The position numbers were made by a program, and so were the translations under genes. A DNA stretch of 35,069 nucleotides, from assembly GCA_028286785.1 (NCBI GenBank), contig JAQBQX010000005.1, positions 1 to 35,069 on the forward strand. Reading direction: 5' to 3'. Positions within the stretch are counted from its first letter, which is position 1. Each line of letters begins with the position of its first letter. The DNA comes from Candidatus Adlerbacteria bacterium. GTDB lineage: Bacteria > Patescibacteriota > Minisyncoccia > Phycocordibacterales > SBAW01. The notes below the pieces were generated by a model. That model ran no database searches. It worked only from the letters and a program-made list of their open reading frames with translations, and had not been told where the DNA came from. Positions 2,238-33,586 of this stretch are shown in pieces.

Positions 2238-3545
2238 ATGGCAAAACCAAAAAAGGTCGTTAAAAAGAAGGCAGCCTCAAAAGCTACCCGCCCTGCGGCA
2301 AAGCGCAAAGTGGCGGGTAAAGCTGTTGCACCCAAGGTCCGCAACAATGTAGGGCAAGCCAAAAAGTTCCGTGATACTGCGGCTAAACGCCGTGTCGCTT
2401 CTGCGCCTAAAAAAGCTGTAAAAAAGGCCGCAAAGGCCGCGCCAGCACCCAAGGCAAACCCAAAGGCCACCAAGCGCGCGCATGACCTCGAAAAGAAGGC
2501 AGAGCAGTTGATGGCGCGTGGTCGCGACCGCGGATTTATTACCTACGACGAAATCCTGAAACTCTTTCCTGATATCGAGACCGACGTCACTTTCCTTGAA
2601 GACCTATACGACCGTTTGGCAACCGCACACATCGACGTGCTCGAAGGCGGCGGCATGCTCGAGATCGTCGAAGACGTGCCAGAAAAAGGCTACGCCCGCT
2701 CGGACTCGCAATATGACTCTATCCAGATGTATCTGCGCGAGATCGGCAAGTATCCGCTCCTTTCTGGTCAGGAAGAACGTGACTTGGCCAAGCGCATCAC
2801 CGAAGGCGACATGGAGGCCAAGAACCTCTTGTGGCGCGCAAACCTCCGCCTCGTGGTGTCTATCGCTAAAAAGTATGTAGGACGCTCACCAGACCTCACG
2901 CTACTCGACCTTATCCAAGAGGGTAACCTCGGGCTCTTTAAGGCTGTCGAGAAATTCGACTTTACCAAGGGCTTCAAATTTTCTACCTATGCCACCTGGT
3001 GGATCCGCCAGGCTATCACGCGCGCGCTTGCGGACCAGTCACGCACTATCCGTATCCCGGTCCATATGGTGGAAACCATCGCTAAATACAAGCAAGTCTC
3101 GCGCCGCCTGTCGCAGGAACTTGGCCGCGACCCCTTGGCCGACGAAATCGCGCTTGAGATGGGAGTTGACGTTGAAAAGATCTACCAGATCGAAAAGATC
3201 GACCAAGATACAGTGTCGCTCGAAAGCCCAGTGGGCTCGGACGACGGCGACGACGGCAAGTCGGTTTTGGGTGACTTCATCAAGGACGATAAAATCCTCG
3301 GTCCTGACCAGGAAGTGGCTCGCCGCATTTTGGCCGACCAGCTCAAGGAAATCCTCGATGAGTTGTCTCCTAAAGAGCGCGAAATTCTGAAACTCCGCCA
3401 CGGCCTTGAAGACGGCATTTACCATACACTCGAAGAGGTGGGCAAGAAGTTTGGCGTTACTCGCGAACGCATCCGCCAGATCGAGGCAAAAGCACTCGAA
3501 CGCATCCGCACCCACGAAAAAGCAAAGAGACTCCGGAGCTACTAA
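2238..3545 (+). CDS. rpoD: Primary sigma-70 factor RpoD/SigA with a Lys/Ala-rich N-terminal tail
   Basis: Region 2 ([44 protein letters not shown]), region 3, and region 4 ([20 protein letters not shown]). The first ~80 aa are a KKAAK/APK-type basic low-complexity tail. Confidence 0.95.
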
Positions 3546-3554
3546 ACAACTATT

Positions 3555-3580
3555 AAAAACCACCCGAAAGGGTGGTTTTT
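3555..3580 (+). terminator. Rho-independent terminator after rpoD
   Basis: ACCACCC (3559-3565), GAAA loop, GGGTGGT (3570-3576), then T-run to 3580. Begins 10 nt after the rpoD stop. Confidence 0.8.
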
Positions 3581-3582
3581 GC

Positions 3583-3588
3583 TATACT
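3583..3588 (+). promoter_or_regulatory. -10 box TATACT 6 nt upstream of ATG 3595 (leaderless-type)
   Basis: TATACT 3583-3588, tgccgt, ATG 3595. No SD. Sits immediately after the rpoD terminator U-tract. Confidence 0.5.
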
Positions 3589-3594
3589 TGCCGT

Positions 3595-4452
3595 ATGTCG
3601 CGGGGACCCAACAAACCACTACCTATCAAGCATTGGAGCCATTCGTCGCTCATGTCATATCTGCGCAACCCTTTGGCTTGGTACAAGCGCTATGTGGAAG
3701 AAATATACGACACCCCGTCGTCACCTTCGTCCATTGTGGGGCGCGCGGGCCATATTGCCTTGCAGCACTATTACGGCGGCATAGACAAGGCAGGTGCCGA
3801 GGCGCTGGGCCTGCAATATCTGCAGAGCGTGCCAGACTTCGAGATCAACTTTGGCGTTGCCAAAACCCGCAAGGCTCAAAAAGCCAAGCGTCTTTCCATG
3901 CAAAAAGAATATGTGCAGGCGATATCGTTTTATCTGGATCGACCGCCCAAGTACAAAGTGGTCGGGGTCGAGGTTAAGGGCACAGTGACCGTTAAAGGCT
4001 TACCGCTGCCGCTTAAGGCAGTGTCAGACCTTGTTGTCGAGTCCAAGGTAGAAAAGGGCGCTTTGGACATTGTCGACCACAAGTTTGTCGAATCATTCAC
4101 CAAGCTCGGCGCCAGCAAAGCATTGTTTATTGTGCAGGCGATATTTAATTACTACACAGTCACTGCGCGATACAAGCAGCCGGTGCGGCGCTTTATCGTG
4201 TACGAATGCAAAAAGTCGCGTAATGCCGACGGCTCGTCGCAGATGCGCAAGTATGTCATCGACTTTTCCAAGTGCGGCGAAGAGTTCAAGCTCTTTCATC
4301 GCCTGATCAAAGACACAACCGCAGATCTGAAACGCAAAAGAGTCTTCCTCCCGAATCCATCTGACATGTTCGAAGGGGAAAACTCTTTTGATATCTATCG
4401 CCTCGGTCTGATTGACGAGGATATTCCGGAAAAAGACTTTATTGACCGGTAG
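3595..4452 (+). CDS. PD-(D/E)XK (RecB/Cas4-like, PDDEXK_1-type) nuclease
   Basis: N-terminal WSHSSLMSYLRNPLAWYKRY. GRAGHIALQHYY. Motif II D in AVSDLVV. Motif III LDIVDHKF (D-x-K). QxxxY in VQAIFNYY. Start moved to ATG 3595 because the track ORF start (3406) overlaps rpoD and spans its terminator. Confidence 0.8.
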   Translation: MSRGPNKPLPIKHWSHSSLMSYLRNPLAWYKRYVEEIYDTPSSPSSIVGRAGHIALQHYYGGIDKAGAEALGLQYLQSVPDFEINFGVAKTRKAQKAKRLSMQKEYVQAISFYLDRPPKYKVVGVEVKGTVTVKGLPLPLKAVSDLVVESKVEKGALDIVDHKFVESFTKLGASKALFIVQAIFNYYTVTARYKQPVRRFIVYECKKSRNADGSSQMRKYVIDFSKCGEEFKLFHRLIKDTTADLKRKRVFLPNPSDMFEGENSFDIYRLGLIDEDIPEKDFIDR

Positions 4453-13221: not shown

Positions 13222-13230
13222 TGGTATACT
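13222..13230 (+). promoter_or_regulatory. Extended -10 (TGgTATACT) 6 nt upstream of ATG 13237
   Basis: TGG 13222-13224, TATACT 13225-13230, gcagcc, ATG 13237. No SD. Confidence 0.55.
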
Positions 13231-13236
13231 GCAGCC

Positions 13237-20544: not shown

Positions 20545-21186
20545 TTATTTCTCCGAGGTAAACAGAGCGTATTCTTCAGGAAAGAGCCAGATAAGCAAAT
20601 GGTAGATGCTATAGGTGATAAAGAAGGCGGACAGAACGTCTATCGAGTAGTGGAGGTGTCCCATGAGCACAATAACGCCAAAAAAGACTGATGCTGTAAG
20701 ATAGAAATATCGCAGAAACGGCTCTTTCCAAAAGGCCAAGGCGCCTAAAAAGGGTAGCCCGGTGTGGCCCGAGAAAAAGCGGTCGCCTCCAAAAAACAGC
20801 TTGCTTACGGCTGGGCCAAACTCACCAGAGGTGTAGGGCATAAAAGGCGCAATGTGGGTTAGCGACACAAAGATCGAGCGGATGAAGAAAAAGAGCGCGA
20901 CACCATAGAGCATCATAGGAAGGCGCTTGGGCTGCATGAGGCAGACAAACACAGTGATGATTGCTACAAGGAGGGTGCCGTAGACAAAGAGGGCGTCAAC
21001 ATTAAATATAGGGATATTTGAAAGGACAAGGTCCGTCACGGGGTTGCTGGCCCGGTCGGTGGCGTACTCGATTGCGTAAGTGTTAAGCACGAGGCTCAAC
21101 ATGAATAATCCTGCCGAAAGGACTAACGCGCGGATGTACGTATAGTCTGATAGGTGTAGCTTGTAGCGCTCAAGAACGGCTCGCAT
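20545..21186 (-). CDS. PAP2-superfamily (PAP2_C / sphingomyelin-synthase-like) membrane protein
   Basis: Six predicted TM helices. Lipid-phosphatase motifs C2 FFSGHTG and C3 GHLHYSIDV. Confidence 0.75.
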   Translation of the reverse strand: MRAVLERYKLHLSDYTYIRALVLSAGLFMLSLVLNTYAIEYATDRASNPVTDLVLSNIPIFNVDALFVYGTLLVAIITVFVCLMQPKRLPMMLYGVALFFFIRSIFVSLTHIAPFMPYTSGEFGPAVSKLFFGGDRFFSGHTGLPFLGALAFWKEPFLRYFYLTASVFFGVIVLMGHLHYSIDVLSAFFITYSIYHLLIWLFPEEYALFTSEK

Positions 21187-21195
21187 GTATACAAT

Positions 21196-21205
21196 AGTAT
21201 ATACT
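21196..21205. promoter_or_regulatory. 10-bp palindrome AGTATATACT forming back-to-back TATACT -10 boxes
   Basis: On the + strand, TATACT 21200-21205, gctttct, ATG 21213. On the - strand, TATACT 21201..21196, attgtatac, ATG 21186. The whole divergent intergenic region is only 26 nt. Confidence 0.5.
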
Positions 21206-21212
21206 GCTTTCT

Positions 21213-21824
21213 ATGAGTCTGGACACCATCATCCACCTGATAGAAACCTACAAGTACCTCATCCTTTTCCCGATAGCGGCGTTCGAGGGGCCAGTCACGG
21301 GCTTTATTGTGGGCATGCTCATCGCATTTGGCTACCTAAATCCGTATGTTTCGTACCTTGTTTTGGTAATGGGCGACCTTGTTCCCGACGCGGTCTATTA
21401 CTACATGGGCCGGTTCGGAGAAGCAAAGAGCATCATCCCGCGCTACTTTGCCAAGGTGGGGATAACCGAAGAGCACTTTGGGGCGGTGCGTTCACTATGG
21501 AAAAAGCATCCGGGTAAGACCATGTTTTTTAGCAAGTTGGCATACGGGCTTTCGACCCCGTTCCTTATTTCTGCTGGTCTTGTCGGTATGAAGCCGGGCA
21601 AATTCTTTCTGTATGCCCTGCCGGTCACCTTTGCACAATATGCCATTTTGATGGCGCTGGGTTACCACTTCAGCAGTTCGTTTGGAACTGTTGCGAATAT
21701 CTTTGCGAATATCCAATACGTCATTGGCGGCCTGGTTCTGGTGTTTATCGGGTACTACTTCCTTGCAAAATATATGCGCAAGCGCCTCTTGGCTGCAGAA
21801 AAGGAGGCAGAGGCCAAAGAGTAG
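21213..21824 (+). CDS. DedA/VTT-family membrane protein
   Basis: LILFPIAAFEGPVTGFIVG...VLVMGDLVPDAVYYYMGRFG, plus multiple TM helices. Confidence 0.85.
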   Translation: MSLDTIIHLIETYKYLILFPIAAFEGPVTGFIVGMLIAFGYLNPYVSYLVLVMGDLVPDAVYYYMGRFGEAKSIIPRYFAKVGITEEHFGAVRSLWKKHPGKTMFFSKLAYGLSTPFLISAGLVGMKPGKFFLYALPVTFAQYAILMALGYHFSSSFGTVANIFANIQYVIGGLVLVFIGYYFLAKYMRKRLLAAEKEAEAKE

Positions 21825-23809: not shown

Positions 23810-23817
23810 GTGGCTCC

Positions 23818-23823
23818 AGTATA
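23818..23823 (-). promoter_or_regulatory. -10 box TATACT 8 nt upstream of ATG 23809
   Basis: On the - strand: TATACT (23823..23818), ggagccac, ATG 23809. Confidence 0.45.
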
Positions 23824-24601: not shown

Positions 24602-24628
24602 TTGACGATAAAAATTTAGGTATATACT
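24602..24628 (+). promoter_or_regulatory. Promoter TTGACG-15-TATACT, 8 nt upstream of ATG 24637
   Basis: TTGACG 24602-24607, TATACT 24623-24628, gaaagcac, ATG 24637. The 15-nt spacer is shorter than optimal. Confidence 0.5.
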
Positions 24629-24636
24629 GAAAGCAC

Positions 24637-29945: not shown

Positions 29946-29975
29946 TTGACAGGTGAACTTTGGTTCACTTATACT
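29946..29975 (+). promoter_or_regulatory. lexA promoter TTGACA-18-TATACT, 8 nt upstream of ATG 29984
   Basis: TTGACA 29946-29951, TATACT 29970-29975, tactttat, ATG 29984. The spacer contains the SOS box. Confidence 0.7.
29954..29967. promoter_or_regulatory. LexA (SOS / Cheo-type) operator TGAAC-TTTG-GTTCA
   Basis: Perfect palindromic arms GAAC (29955-29958) and GTTC (29963-29966) with a 4-nt spacer, located between the -35 and -10 of the lexA promoter. It is the only GAAC-N4-GTTC I found in the window. Confidence 0.7.
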
Positions 29976-29983
29976 TACTTTAT

Positions 29984-30589
29984 ATGTACGACGAAAATAA
30001 AAAGAAGGTCATCAAGTTTTATAAGCGCTACAACCGCACGCCTGGCTACCAGGAAATCATGGAGATGACGGGCTTTAGGTCTAAAAACGCGGTGTTCAAG
30101 CTTATCGAGCAATTGGCCGACGACGGGGTTGTCTACAAAGACGCGCACGGCAAAATCGCGCCTAAAAATATCCGCGAAGGCATCAAGATGCTCGGGCTCG
30201 TCGAAGCGGGTTTTCCGTCACCTGCTGAGGAAGAGCTGCTCGACGTTGTCGACTTTGACGAATACCTGACGCCCAACAAAGAGTCGTCGTACATACTCAA
30301 GGTCAAAGGCGAGTCGATGAAAGACGCAGGTTTTATGCCAGGCGACATGGTTATTGTCGAGCGCAAAAACATCTACAAACCTGGCGACATCGTCATTGCG
30401 TGCGTCGATGGAGAATACACCATGAAGTACCTGCGCAAGATGCCCACTGTGCCTCCTGGCAGGGCAGGTGGCGGCGCCAAGGGTCCGCAATATTTTCTCG
30501 AGCCAGCAAACAAAGACTTCCAAAACATATATCCAGGCGAAGGCTTTCGGGTAGAGGCGGTTGTGACTGCGGTGGTGCGCAAATACTGA
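29984..30589 (+). CDS. lexA: LexA-type repressor (wHTH + S24 autopeptidase)
   Basis: N-terminal wHTH (YQEIMEMTGFRSKNAVFKLIEQL). Cleavage-site context GLVEAGFP. Catalytic Ser in KVKGESM and Lys in YTMKYL. The track start (29960) is TTG, so ATG 29984 is preferred. Confidence 0.85.
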   Translation: MYDENKKKVIKFYKRYNRTPGYQEIMEMTGFRSKNAVFKLIEQLADDGVVYKDAHGKIAPKNIREGIKMLGLVEAGFPSPAEEELLDVVDFDEYLTPNKESSYILKVKGESMKDAGFMPGDMVIVERKNIYKPGDIVIACVDGEYTMKYLRKMPTVPPGRAGGGAKGPQYFLEPANKDFQNIYPGEGFRVEAVVTAVVRKY

Positions 30590-30622
30590 AGCGCTCATGT
30601 TCATGCAACACAAATCGTATTT

Positions 30623-30631
30623 TGGTAAGAT
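30623..30631 (+). promoter_or_regulatory. Extended -10 (TGgTAAGAT) 7 nt upstream of ATG 30639
   Basis: TGG 30623-30625, TAAGAT 30626-30631, gtaagga, ATG 30639. Confidence 0.45.
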
Positions 30632-30638
30632 GTAAGGA

Positions 30639-32096
30639 ATGGTTCGTACTCTCAAAAAATTACAACAGAAACTCGAATACTTGGACAAATACACATTTGC
30701 TATTGTTGATACCGAAACAAGCGGCACCAGTCCCAACAATAACCAGATCATCGAGATCGGCATTTTGCGTGTCGAGCAGGGGAAGGTCGTGCGCACCTAC
30801 AAAACGCTCATCAAACCTGCGCGCATGATCCCCAAGGTAATCACCTCGATCACCGGCATCCAGCCCGAGGACTTGGAAGACGCCCCCGCGTTCGAGGAAG
30901 TGGCGCTCGATATCCGCGAGATGCTCGAAGGCGCCGTGATGGTGGCGCACAATGCCCGGTTTGACTACAGCTTTATCAAAAACGAGTTCAAGCGCCTCGG
31001 TATACCGTACAACGCCAAGACACTTTGTACGGTCAAATTGTCGCGCGAATTGTTTCCCCAATATTCGCACCATAACCTCGACGCGGTTATTGAGGCTCAT
31101 GGCTTGCGCTGCATCAACCGCCATCGCGCCTATGACGATGCAGATGCGCTGTGGCAGTTTCTGCAGGTAGTGGAGAAGAAGATCGAGAAAGAAAAGATGG
31201 TTGCGACAATTGAGAAATTGCTCGGCAATCACACGCTGCCCACAGGTCTTTCTCGCGAGATGCTCCGCGGGCTCCCGAACACTCCGGGCGTATACATTTT
31301 TTATGGCGCTGACAACGAGGTGCTGTATGTCGGCAAAAGCGTGAACATCCGCACTCGTGTCCTGTCTCATTTTTCTGGCGACCATCAAACTGCAAAAGAA
31401 CTGCGGATGACCGGGGAGGTTGCCCACGTCGGATTCGAAGAAACCACCGGTGAGCTTTCGGCACTATTTTTAGAGTCCAAACTCATCAAAGAGCTGATAC
31501 CGGTATACAACAGGGCTTTGCGCAAAGCCAAACAGCTTGCAGTGATGACCCGCACAGAAACCGAGCGCGGTTATAGCAGTGTCAGTGTGTCATACGCAAG
31601 CTACGTGGACCCAACAGAAGGCGAGGTGTTGGGGATATTCCGCACCAAGCGGCAGGCAAAGGATTTCCTGGACAGTGTGGTGCGCGACCATGCGCTGTGC
31701 CCCAAACTATTGGGTGTCGAACAGGGGACTGGCGCGTGCTTCCAGCAACAGCTGGGTCACTGCCAGGGCGCATGTGTCGGCGCCGAGCGTGTACACGACT
31801 ACAATGCGCGCTTTAGTGGCGTGTTCGCAGCGCGCAAAATTAAAACCTGGCCGTACAAGGGTCCCGTGGTCGTTAAGGAAGATGCCGAGGCCGAAGAGGG
31901 CACTGCGTACGTTATAGACAACTGGCGTTTGGTTGCTAAAATCAATTATACGAACGAGTCGCACGACGAGGAAGCTGTGGGGGAAAGCGAGTTCGATTAC
32001 GACGCATATAAGATTTTGATCAAGCACTTTATGAAGCGCGAAGTGCAAAGGAGTATTGTGCCATACAAACCAATCAGTTATACTTTTTCCTTGTGA
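30639..32096 (+). CDS. DnaQ-like 3'-5' exonuclease fused to a GIY-YIG (UvrC N-terminal half / Cho-like) nuclease
   Basis: Exo motifs FAIVDTETSG, AHNARFDYSF, HRAYDDADA. GIY-YIG motif PGVYIFYG..VLYVGKSVNIRTRVLSHF...LESKLIKELIPVYN. UvrC-type Cys-rich segment ACFQQQLGHCQGACVG. No UVR or C-terminal endonuclease domains. Confidence 0.88.
   Translation: MVRTLKKLQQKLEYLDKYTFAIVDTETSGTSPNNNQIIEIGILRVEQGKVVRTYKTLIKPARMIPKVITSITGIQPEDLEDAPAFEEVALDIREMLEGAVMVAHNARFDYSFIKNEFKRLGIPYNAKTLCTVKLSRELFPQYSHHNLDAVIEAHGLRCINRHRAYDDADALWQFLQVVEKKIEKEKMVATIEKLLGNHTLPTGLSREMLRGLPNTPGVYIFYGADNEVLYVGKSVNIRTRVLSHFSGDHQTAKELRMTGEVAHVGFEETTGELSALFLESKLIKELIPVYNRALRKAKQLAVMTRTETERGYSSVSVSYASYVDPTEGEVLGIFRTKRQAKDFLDSVVRDHALCPKLLGVEQGTGACFQQQLGHCQGACVGAERVHDYNARFSGVFAARKIKTWPYKGPVVVKEDAEAEEGTAYVIDNWRLVAKINYTNESHDEEAVGESEFDYDAYKILIKHFMKREVQRSIVPYKPISYTFSL
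32079..32084 (+). promoter_or_regulatory. TATACT 8 nt upstream of the GTG start of the SET gene (inside the preceding CDS)
   Basis: TATACT 32079-32084, ttttcctt, GTG 32093. Confidence 0.35.
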
Positions 32097-32575
32097 CCCA
32101 GAAAAATAATATCGCAACCACTGTGGCAAAAAAAACAGCTACAAAAAAAATTACAAGAAAGAAATTTGTCCCCGGCGATTTTGGCCTGAAAGTTAAACGC
32201 TCTACCGCTGGGCTCGGGTTGTTTGCAGGCACTGCCATCCCCAAAGGCGCGTGCGTTATCGAATATGTCGGCCGAACGCTGGAACCTGGCGAGGATCTGA
32301 CGAGCAATAGCCTCTATTTATTTGAGATAACTAAAACCAAGACAATCGACGGCACAGCACGCACTAACACAGCGCGGTACATCAACCATTCGTGCAAGCC
32401 CAACTGCGAAATCGAGTATAACAAGGGTCGCGTGTTTATCTTTGCGCTGCGCAATATCAAACCGGGAGAAGAGCTCAACTACGACTACGAAGAAGAATAT
32501 TTTAACGAGTACATCAAACCCAAGGGCTGCCGCTGCCGCAAATGTTCGCCGCAGCTATACGCAGAAGCCAAATAA
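32093..32575 (+). CDS. SET-domain protein-lysine methyltransferase with post-SET Cys motif
   Basis: GLGLFA, IEYVG, ARYINHSCKPN, ELNYDY, and post-SET CRCRKC. Lys-rich N-terminus (KKTATKKITRKK). The GTG start overlaps the upstream TGA (GTGA, 32093-32096). Confidence 0.9.
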   Translation: MTQKNNIATTVAKKTATKKITRKKFVPGDFGLKVKRSTAGLGLFAGTAIPKGACVIEYVGRTLEPGEDLTSNSLYLFEITKTKTIDGTARTNTARYINHSCKPNCEIEYNKGRVFIFALRNIKPGEELNYDYEEEYFNEYIKPKGCRCRKCSPQLYAEAK

Positions 32576-32586
32576 ACAGCATATAG

Positions 32587-32619
32587 AAAAACCACCACCC
32601 GACATGGGTGGTGGTTTTT
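32587..32619. terminator. Bidirectional rho-independent terminator
   Basis: 10-bp stem ACCACCACCC (32591-32600) / GGGTGGTGGT (32606-32615), flanked by an A5 run (32587-32591) and a T-run (to 32619). Lies between the convergent SET and KGG genes. Confidence 0.85.
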
Positions 32620-32647: not shown

Positions 32648-32878
32648 TTATTCGCCGCTGAAGTCTTCGCTGTTGGATGAGTCACCGCCTTCTTGGTTAT
32701 TTCCTTGGCGGGCTTGGCCACCTTTGCGGCCAGCCTCGCGCGCCTCTTCCGAGGAGAACTCATGAGCTGTGCCCTTTTCATGGGCTGCTTTGCCGCCCTG
32801 GCTAGCTATTTCGCGCTGCTTGTCTTCGTCCATTGATGCGAACCCGCGGCCCTTGCTCTCATTGTTGTTCTTTTCCAT
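32648..32878 (-). CDS. KGG-repeat general stress protein (YciG/GsiB-like)
   Basis: Repeated (A/E)SxGGKAAH and AGRKGGQA motifs in a 76-aa hydrophilic protein. Confidence 0.8.
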   Translation of the reverse strand: MEKNNNESKGRGFASMDEDKQREIASQGGKAAHEKGTAHEFSSEEAREAGRKGGQARQGNNQEGGDSSNSEDFSGE

Positions 32879-32955: not shown

Positions 32956-33573
32956 TTAAGCTGTAGCGCCTAAAACTCCTTGTGCTAAGCCATATTTCAC
33001 AAACTCTACAGGGGTGAGAACAGTATTGTTTTTCATCATCTCTAGCACCTGCTCGGGTGTGAGTTTGCCGTGAGAATGTTCAGCTACGATGCTCGCGTAC
33101 TGCGTATCCTTGATACGGTCTTCCTCAAGCATGGCGCTCATTTCTGTGGCAGTAAAACGCTGGCCATTGGCAAACGTGCGGCCGGCAAGATGCAAAAGCG
33201 CAGTCGTGTGCGCGGTTATATAGCGAACATCTCCGGAAAGGAAGATGATCATGCCGGACGAGTCCACGTCGCCAGCGCCAATGGTGACCAGGCGCGGACG
33301 CAAAATGCTGCGCACGGTGTCATAAAAGCCCATTGCCGTACCCGATGGCCCACCTGCCGATGTGACGGTCAGGTAGAGCTCGTTGTTGGGGGTGGTGAGC
33401 ATGTGTTCTTTGATGCGGTTAAGCACCCTCTCGTTGGTGGCGTAGTTAACAACACCTAAATATTCGGCCACATGCTCGGGGGCAAAATGCATGGGCACCA
33501 ATGGAGTCTGCAGTGGAGAGAGAGTGAGCTTGTTGCGGGCTTGCGAGAGAATTGTTTTTCTTTGTGGAGACAC
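32956..33573 (-). CDS. Divergent ClpP-fold (S14-like) serine protease homologue
   Basis: ELYLTVTSAGGPSGTAMGFYDTV aligns with ClpP DIYLYINSPGGxxxAGxxIYDTM. Ser105 (GDVDSSG) and His128 (ALLHLAG) align with the ClpP Ser/His. GTG start, with TATAAT 7 nt upstream. Confidence 0.65.
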   Translation of the reverse strand: MSPQRKTILSQARNKLTLSPLQTPLVPMHFAPEHVAEYLGVVNYATNERVLNRIKEHMLTTPNNELYLTVTSAGGPSGTAMGFYDTVRSILRPRLVTIGAGDVDSSGMIIFLSGDVRYITAHTTALLHLAGRTFANGQRFTATEMSAMLEEDRIKDTQYASIVAEHSHGKLTPEQVLEMMKNNTVLTPVEFVKYGLAQGVLGATA

Positions 33574-33580
33574 TCAGTTC

Positions 33581-33586
33581 ATTATA
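33581..33586 (-). promoter_or_regulatory. Consensus -10 TATAAT 7 nt upstream of GTG 33573
   Basis: On the - strand: TATAAT (33586..33581), gaactga, GTG 33573. Confidence 0.5.

Follow-up and report, generated by a model that had tools for sequence, protein, structure and literature searches.

A probable SOS-type repair cassette with a Cho+Exo nuclease beside a resident SET methyltransferase gene in a Paceibacteria chromosome

In Gram-positive bacteria, the repressor LexA (DinR) autoregulates its own gene through the Cheo box, CGAAC-N4-GTTCG, and in the lexA2-imuA-imuB-dnaE2 SOS cassettes of Proteobacteria a gene of the LexA family heads a compact, movable block of repair and tolerance genes. 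The SOS network of Patescibacteria is reportedly the subject of a study by Sanchez-Osuna, Barbe and Erill (2017; cited in PMC8565304 and PMC7739468). Here, we examine a locus at positions 29946-32575 of a 35,069-nucleotide stretch of DNA from Candidatus Adlerbacteria bacterium (positions 1-35,069 of contig JAQBQX010000005.1, assembly GCA_028286785.1; hereafter the window), in which genes for a LexA-like repressor, a Cho+Exo nuclease, and a SET-domain methyltransferase (SET1) follow one another on the forward strand. These gene assignments are unambiguous at the sequence level, and all of the sequence features named in a preliminary description of the locus were found where it had placed them. 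We consider it more likely than not that the locus is an SOS-type repair cassette in the chromosome of an uncultured Paceibacteria (Patescibacteria, or Candidate Phyla Radiation) bacterium from soil, and that the SET methyltransferase gene beside it is a resident one.

The closest described relatives of the individual parts are as follows. The "Cho+Exo" architecture was recognized as a subfamily of UvrC-like GIY-YIG proteins (Dunin-Horkawicz et al., 2006; PMC1564403), with E. coli Cho and the mycobacterial "Cho-like+Exo" proteins as relatives, and a GIY-YIG exonuclease (COG0847) was predicted by comparative genomics to be a LexA target in the Bacteroidetes SOS regulon (PMC8565304). Among prokaryotic SET methyltransferases, Methanosarcina Go1-SET methylates MC1-alpha, and chlamydial NUE/cpnSET has also been described (PMC3980110, PMC2904774). 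The preliminary description knew of no SET enzyme linked to an SOS nuclease, and our search of the literature likewise found none.

Like Gram-positive LexA/DinR, the window's repressor gene has a GAAC-N4-GTTC element overlapping its promoter and encodes a winged helix together with an S24 domain bearing the Ala-Gly site, the Ser, and the Lys. The preliminary description placed a perfect TGAAC-N4-GTTCA operator between the -35 and -10 elements of lexA and interpreted it as SOS autoregulation of the Cheo-box type; the palindrome is indeed present (Table 1), and its conservation speaks for the interpretation. The window contains one exact GAAC-N4-GTTC where 0.52 would be expected, and 41 of 100 shuffles hold at least one, so the box alone is not above chance; its significance derives from its position and from its conservation in relatives. 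The layout of -35 element, GGTGAAC-N4-GTTCAC, TATACT, 6-8 nucleotides (nt), and ATG recurs in the closely related loci L136-138 as well as in L389, a more distant one (loci of other genomes carry L numbers here, and proteins P numbers), and across the three lineages that these form with the window, neither the arms of the box nor the TATACT -10 element changes, whereas spacer and flanks do. The same geometry is seen at L355, where CGAACAAATGTTCG adjoins TATACT as the equivalent of the lexA box, and at L326, where TAGAACAATTGTTCTA lies about 30 nt 5' of the lexA ATG (51 nt before the start of the tblastn match). The box is conserved, then, in four further Paceibacteria lineages (L136-138, L389, L355, L326), the background of exact boxes being 0.026 per kb across all fetched loci, and at L389 a single box serves both lexA-dinB and a divergent nuclease gene. 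Autoregulation of LexA through a Cheo-type box is supported by these comparisons of sequence. In addition, the lexA mRNA would be leaderless or nearly so, since the ATG at 29984 lies only 8 nt past the -10 element.

One further relative deserves mention here. At L078 (4398-4460, minus strand), the gene for a LexA 56-57% identical to that of the window carries TAGAGC-ATTT-GCTCTA in place of GAAC-N4-GTTC between TTGCAT and TATACT, possibly reflecting an altered half-site specificity.

The repressor itself displays the complete LexA layout, with an N-terminal winged-helix region and a C-terminal S24 domain. Residues 19-153 align to residues 25-161 of E. coli LexA, and the alignment to TIGR00498 spans residues 16-200 of the protein's 201. 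The motifs VEAGFP (the Ala-Gly site), GESMKD (Ser), and TMKYLRK (Lys) align with VAAGEP, GMSMKD, and TVKRLKK of E. coli and are kept in relatives, and the N-terminal MYDENK is kept in L136-138, the closest relative at 88% identity. Unlike Gram-positive LexA/DinR, however, the protein is short (201 residues), UmuD-like around the cleavage site (EAGFPSPAEE), and below the NCBIfam cut-off for LexA; it has a lineage-specific Gly/Pro loop and a predicted leaderless mRNA, and other Paceibacteria possess another type of LexA associated with direct repeats. The loop, MPTVPPGRAGGGAKGPQ, which the preliminary description reported as a Gly/Pro-rich insertion of about 13 residues, follows the Lys strand and exceeds that of most relatives by 13 residues and that of L136, itself expanded by 6, by 7; other relatives show no expansion. 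Judged from the alignments, the insertion is real, but it is a variable loop.

The nuclease combines a DEDDh 3'-5' exonuclease domain with GIY-YIG, four-Cys, and Cho C-terminal regions. This fits the preliminary description, which had seen a DnaQ-type exonuclease fused to a GIY-YIG and Cys-rich N-terminal half of UvrC 49 nt downstream of lexA, and had called the Cho-like architecture SOS-linked; both the fusion and the link hold up, the protein being a member of the described Cho+Exo subfamily and linked to LexA in many genomes. Among 31 homologs, the DEDDh residues D24, E26, D109, H162, and D167 are invariant, as are Y219, Y230, R240, E279, N291, C354, C367, C375, and C379 of the GIY-YIG and four-Cys regions. 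Precomputed Pfam assignments place PF27096 (UvrC_M) and PF27115 (Cho_C) on the protein, a Cho-specific C-terminal domain being present in place of UvrBb-EndoV-HhH, and structure matches include the exonucleases of PolC and DinG and the N-terminal part of UvrC. The excinuclease Cho model NF007833 aligns residues 206-469 to positions 25-281 of its 289, with 196 bits against a cut-off of 367 (enterobacterial Cho). The order of ExoIII/DEDDh, GIY-YIG, four Cys, and Cho C-terminal domain, as well as the SOS link, is thus that of the Cho+Exo subfamily (PMC1564403). Whereas that study reported the architecture from a few Betaproteobacteria, we found it to be abundant in Patescibacteria, Bacteroidota, Ignavibacteriota, and Gammaproteobacteria.

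A survey of 310 nuclease loci, reduced to 260 clusters at 90% identity (25 Paceibacteria-type and 235 others), bears on the association with LexA. Relatives in genomes were gathered best with an alignment of the C-terminal part, full-length searches having returned generic exonuclease motifs with no Paceibacteria among the matches listed. In 13 of the 25 Paceibacteria-type clusters, compared with 11 of the 235 others, the nuclease gene has a LexA-like gene no more than 2.5 kb away, and DinB is nearby in 5/25 compared with 8/235. The arrangements differ: lexA-dinB-nuclease in L136, where a gene for a 414-residue DinB of the IMS family (L136:2131-3375) separates the two; lexA-dinB divergent from the nuclease gene with a shared box in L389; and canonical lexA in divergent orientation. 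Because this linkage recurs across clusters and arrangements, the SOS link of the nuclease is, at the level of gene order, well supported. In the window, the 49-nt spacer between lexA and the nuclease gene (30590-30638) is homologous to the stretch just 5' of the nuclease gene in L136, and dinB is therefore absent from the cassette here.

The LexA-operator-nuclease part of the locus is a sound example of already known kinds. Its nuclease is of the same fused exonuclease/GIY-YIG kind as the LexA-regulated enzyme of Bacteroidetes (PMC8565304); unlike that case, it occurs in another phylum with other LexA motifs, and its gene is physically clustered with lexA and, in relatives, often with dinB. 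Likewise, a LexA-family gene heads the block as in lexA2-imuA-imuB-dnaE2, but the cargo consists of dinB and Cho+Exo, with dinB missing in the window.

The transcription signals of the window indicate how the three genes may be expressed. A TAnnnT hexamer, often TATACT, precedes the start codon by 12-15 nt in 15 of the 29 window genes, where 1.1 would be expected (P=2e-14), and so leaderless transcription appears to be the norm in this organism; Shine-Dalgarno-like sequences are rare in the window. The preliminary description had envisaged a three-gene operon with translational coupling at the nuclease-SET1 junction, that is, one LexA-controlled transcript from 29984 with reinitiation at GTG 32093 after the nuclease stop TGA 32094-32096. 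Such an operon would agree with the common direction of the genes, the gaps of 49 nt and -4 nt, and the presence of only one strong, operator-bearing promoter and, behind SET1, of one strong terminator. The overlap of TGA with GTG 32093-32095 (GTGA, 32093-32096) is real, and a SET1 start at or before GTG 32093 is favored because the ATT..KK segment that follows it is kept at the protein level in L136. The overlap is not conserved, however, since in L136 the nuclease stop is separated from SET1 by 15 nt if a GTG is taken as the start and by 50 nt if the called ATG is, and the SET1 start is ambiguous, GTG 32123 being the gene caller's choice for the 99%-identical protein P0001. Moreover, lexA, the nuclease gene, and SET1 each carry the leaderless signature, the -10 hexamers of the latter two lying at -13 or -14, whereas apparent operon-internal genes (rpoD, nrdB, GH130b, kinase, GT2) lack it; in front of both SET1 and the nuclease gene, TAnnnT at -15 to -12 would arise by chance with a probability of about 0.0014. 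The promoter region of the nuclease is also conserved, in that the 50 nt 5' of the gene are homologous in L136, with TGtTAGAAT 8 nt before the ATG there despite the intervening dinB. The candidate SET1 promoter within the 3' end of the nuclease gene scored below the threshold of a generic promoter scan and was read directly from the sequence; L136 has aTGACg-17-TACACT-8 nt-GTG in the same place. With a -10 element at leaderless distance before each of the downstream genes, a true three-gene operon strikes us as distinctly improbable.

The best reading of these signals is one of three predicted promoters, only the first with an operator, and possible read-through to the terminator. Terminator-like structure was found at neither the lexA-nuclease nor the nuclease-SET1 junction (z +1.1 and +0.7). 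By comparison, the bidirectional terminator after SET1, common to SET1 and the convergent KGG gene, has a predicted energy of -31.6 kcal/mol (z -7.2; 0/200 shuffles fold as well) and 15-nt arms that are 100% complementary.

We put forward the following account as a working model. What the genes encode, their catalytic residues, the conservation of the operator, the patterns of synteny, the promoter-like signals, and the terminator are shown by sequence and its comparison, whereas binding and cleavage of LexA, read-through, and the mechanism of the nuclease are inferred. The LexA-family repressor would shut down its own gene by binding GTGAAC-N4-GTTCAC between the -35 and -10 elements of the leaderless promoter. 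When DNA is damaged, the repressor would undergo the self-cleavage at Ala-Gly that is typical of LexA proteins, whereupon output of the lexA promoter would rise and transcription might continue into the nuclease gene, read-through being proposed because no terminator lies between the two. If the nuclease acts as Cho does, its GIY-YIG and Cho domains would then incise 3' of a lesion bound by UvrAB, and resection from the nick would be the task of the DEDDh exonuclease fused to them. SET1 would be an ordinary, widely conserved Paceibacteria gene whose place near a MASE1 kinase predates the cassette, and which keeps its own promoter and receives at most some extra read-through transcription during SOS induction.

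That SET1 is a canonical SET-domain lysine methyltransferase, as the preliminary description held, is borne out by its Pfam score (Table 1) and the presence of all motifs, as far as sequence can tell. It combines a Lys-rich N-terminal tail with NHSC, ELNYDY, and the post-SET CRCRKC; ARYINHSCKPNC, EELNYDY, and CRCRKC align to KMT2 SET domains, and KMT2/MLL SET domains are the closest solved sequences (E=3e-16). Like the described prokaryotic SETs (PMC3980110, PMC2904774), SET1 is small and stand-alone, with NHSC, ELxYDY, and post-SET cysteines, and a DNA-associated substrate is plausible; unlike them, it has the Lys-rich tail and belongs to a family with 55-76% identity across Patescibacteria and some Alphaproteobacteria. 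Homologs numbered 3806.

In most genomes, SET1 keeps company of another kind. Among 80 representative-genome loci (52-76% identity; 78 scannable upstream), contexts were varied, the nuclease was found within 6 kb of SET1 in none, and lexA was nearby in one, on the opposite strand. No exact GAAC-N4-GTTC occurs from -250 to +80 of SET1 in the 78 loci, and one-mismatch boxes are as frequent 5' of SET1 (0.35 per kb) as in the background (0.37 per kb). Hence, of the Cheo-type boxes whose genome-wide scan the preliminary description had proposed, those at the lexA promoter are kept in relatives, but the 78 stand-alone SET1 genes scanned have no exact one upstream. The neighbors of SET1 in 47 Patescibacteria loci are apparent secreted, cell-wall-related, and membrane proteins and the MASE1 kinase, and no conserved repair-related partner was recognizable among them (judged by sequence, families not scanned). 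The kinase is divergent from SET1 in L041, L052, and L075, and L391, apparently a genome of the sister nuclease lineage (that of nuclease P0127), shows the order kinase, GlmS, SET1 (P0063), Gam. The position near the MASE1 kinase looks ancestral, and the simplest history, read from gene order, appears to be one in which a DedA-lexA-(dinB)-nuclease block came upstream of SET1 in the lineage that comprises the window and L136-139. The adjacency of SET1 and nuclease is, in this light, probably a neighborhood accident, and the suggestion that the SET enzyme takes part in the damage response finds no general SET-nuclease or SOS link behind it (0/80 for the nuclease, 0/78 for exact boxes). The lexA-cho-SET synteny that the preliminary description wished to see checked has a divided outcome, SET1 adjacency being kept in the nearest relatives but absent from the 80 other SET1 loci. 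The first single-protein synteny scans, which covered distant relatives only (nuclease identity of at most 45%), had found linkage in 0/80 and 0/55; closer metagenomic homologs then revealed the nuclease-SET adjacency and corrected this impression of zero conservation.

Several points weigh against our account of the locus as a whole. The repressor scores 88.9 bits against TIGR00498, below the cut-off of 110.95, and 92.9 against the UmuD subfamily model; given these scores and the canonical LexA of other Paceibacteria, it may be a cassette-specific paralog and not a master regulator. The nuclease gene's own promoter has no LexA box, so damage induction of the nuclease would here depend on read-through, and both read-through and the internal promoters are predictions from sequence. 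In addition, SET1 adjoins the nuclease gene on the same strand in the window, L303, and L136-139, that is, in every close-lineage member, with dinB present or absent, and an unrelated SET family beside the nuclease in a sister lineage is not what pure accident would predict.

Following the first of these points, the window's repressor could be a second, LexA/UmuD-like paralog that controls only lexA-(dinB)-nuclease, comparable to the lexA2-type regulators found in proteobacterial mutagenesis cassettes. Its best sequence match in the PDB is a UmuD, and most other Paceibacteria have, beside the nuclease gene, a LexA of about 230 residues that passes TIGR00498 (132.7 bits in L226) and is only 27% identical to the window's repressor. 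This second type is divergent from the nuclease gene (L225-L230, L309-L311, L315; at about 3190-4000 in each), and the intergenic region holds direct repeats, ACACAACAT...CACACAACATACACAAG, and no GAAC palindrome; going by sequence, two types of LexA with different operator regions exist across Paceibacteria. The short type, for its part, accompanies dinB and the nuclease gene in L136, L389, L316, L326, L344, L263, and L355. Nevertheless, the two types were not seen together in any locus or genome compared here, each adjoins the nuclease in its own genomes so that divergent orthologs fit equally well, and the short repressor retains the complete LexA domain layout. We regard a cassette-specific paralog as possible, if somewhat unlikely.

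The points concerning SET1 lead to a different alternative, in which nuclease and SET enzyme form a functional module, their adjacency having been selected, so that damage processing in this subclade would go along with the methylation of lysines in a nucleoid protein, a repair protein, or the nuclease. The retention of same-strand adjacency in the close lineage, irrespective of dinB, would accord with this, as would the lack of a terminator at the nuclease-SET1 junction. In the sister nuclease clade, moreover, the nuclease stop is followed at a distance of 9 nt by the start of a gene from another SET family, SET2 (three 90% clusters and one fragment). SET2 proteins have 141-146 residues and no Cys cluster, score 30-36 bits against the Pfam SET cut-off of 22.4, and share with SET1 only a 48-residue stretch of 33% identity. 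If the sister-lineage genome carries SET1 elsewhere, as appears to be the case, the two adjacencies would be separate events. With about 2 SET genes per genome of about 1000 genes and about 10 independent nuclease contexts, the rough chance of a second SET adjacency given the first is p≈0.02, which is suggestive but falls short of decisive. It is tempting to speculate that the Cho+Exo nuclease twice independently became the immediate upstream neighbor of a SET gene, SET1 here and SET2 in the sister lineage, and that lysine methylation is perhaps coupled to Cho-type damage processing, but we hold this to be doubtful.

Much of the comparative record runs counter to a module. Both SET families are widespread and mostly occur without the nuclease: SET1 in 80/80 representative loci, and SET2, a large family conserved in Paceibacteria (359 matches), without a nuclease nearby in L395, in a SET2-SET1 tandem in L393 (3995-4888; Parcubacteria genome GCA_021414235.1), and in L066 (5920-9282), where SET1 and a more distantly related member of the SET2 family are 2.4 kb apart. 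A functional relationship between the two SET families is possible. LexA boxes are absent 5' of SET1 elsewhere, and none beyond background were found 5' of the sister-lineage nuclease genes. Within the sister clade, SET2 is gone without remnants in the nested members L308 and L314, where a VIT1 gene follows the nuclease, and a cold-shock gene stands 3' of the nuclease in the intermediate branch (P0131, P0129). Of the 25 Paceibacteria-type nuclease clusters, 20 have no SET gene nearby, and neither does any full-length cluster among the 235 others. Finally, SET2 genes, like SET1, have their own -10 element at leaderless distance before the start. A functional nuclease-SET module is, in our estimation, unlikely, and we prefer to regard SET1 as a resident gene beside the cassette; the SET link is weak, a residual lead and not a finding.

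At four SET2 loci, the nuclease stop codon (TAG or TAA) itself opens the TAnnnT hexamer (TAGTAT, TAAACT, or TAATAT), which lies exactly 6 nt before the SET2 start (Table 1).

The locus offers a clean example of how SOS control may be built in the reduced genomes of Patescibacteria: a leaderless, self-repressed lexA, a Cheo-type box, a Cho+Exo nuclease, and, usually, dinB. Few genes of this group are linked to LexA as consistently as that of the nuclease. If it were true, the SET link would tie bacterial protein lysine methylation, the cellular substrates of which are almost unknown, to DNA repair, and would give the hunt for substrates a defined place to begin; it would also constitute a bacterial counterpart of methylation-dependent DNA-damage signalling.

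Table 1. Features of the lexA-nuclease-SET1 locus and its surroundings; positions refer to the window unless a locus is named.
Feature	Position	Strand	Description
lexA promoter	29946-29951 (-35); 29970-29975 (-10)	+	TTGACA, 18-nt spacer, TATACT; 11/12 positions match
Putative LexA operator	29953-29968		GTGAAC-TTTG-GTTCAC (GTGAACTTTGGTTCAC); perfect 16-bp palindrome, core GAAC-N4-GTTC at 29955-29966
LexA-like repressor	29984-30589	+	201 residues; best start ATG 29984; Pfam Peptidase_S24 E=2e-19
Putative nuclease promoter	30623-30631	+	Extended -10 TGgTAAGAT, 7 nt before ATG 30639
Cho+Exo nuclease	30639-32096	+	485 residues; RNase_T E=2.6e-34, GIY-YIG E=3.3e-8; DEDDh 3'-5' exonuclease, GIY-YIG, four-Cys region, Cho C-terminal domain
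Putative SET1 promoter	32056-32084	+	In nuclease 3' end; TTGTGC 32056-32061, 17 nt, TATACT 32079-32084, 8 nt, GTG 32093
SET1 lysine methyltransferase	32093-32575	+	160 residues from GTG 32093 or 150 from GTG 32123; Pfam SET 82.4 bits (cut-off 22.4)
Bidirectional intrinsic terminator	32587-32619		Common to convergent KGG gene; A5, CCACCACCC, GACAT, GGGTGGTGG, T5
KGG stress-repeat protein	32648-32878	-	Convergent to SET1, common terminator
ClpP-like protein	32956-33573	-	Convergent to SET1
Examples of leaderless signature	13225-13236; 20545-21230; 23810-23823; 24623-24636; 33574-33586		
SET2 -10 element built on nuclease stop codon	L140:6495-6515; L142:6450-6470; L304:5456-5476; L312:446-466		

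The wider setting is that of a core chromosome, with dnaG, rpoD, hisS, nrdAB, glycosyl transferases, and two-component systems in the window. A mobile island is unlikely because GC content is flat across the window and core genes lie on both sides of the locus. No tRNAs were found in the window, and scans with defense-system models and Rfam returned nothing relevant except domain-level exonuclease matches. Homologs of the genes come almost entirely from Patescibacteria metagenome-assembled genomes labelled Paceibacterota, Parcubacteria, Adlerbacteria, or Nomurabacteria. In a search of sequencing runs, the window's sequence was found in soil metagenome DNA runs, and only in DNA runs, no RNA runs containing it being found.

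The surroundings of SET1 and of the nuclease gene show some further regularities. In L063, SET1 is followed by convergent KGG and ClpP-like genes, as in the window, and this pair, which in the window uses the terminator of SET1 too and which follows SET1 also in L136, L303, and L073, is a better conserved neighbor of SET1 than the nuclease is. A gene for a Mu Gam-like protein lies a few kb 3' of SET1 both in the window's lineage (L136:8018-8620) and in what appears to be the sister lineage (L391:6640-7209), and in L137 (7337-8160) genes for a ferritin/Dps-like and a SWIB-domain protein come after the Gam-like gene, such that proteins of DNA-end-binding or chromatin type occur in the wider neighborhood. 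SET1 orthologs with 55-69% identity are present in Alphaproteobacteria (Hyphomonadaceae, Methyloceanibacter, Terricaulis; L003, L007, L008, L011-L015, and others), and as this similarity is about that found among Patescibacteria, horizontal transfer between the two groups is suggested. Small genes of other kinds also occur 3' of the nuclease gene elsewhere: a YgjP-like metal hydrolase gene lies 4 nt downstream in L306/L307 (L306:5445-5792), and a cold-shock-domain gene is found in L388 (5431-5628) and L396 (4551-4748).

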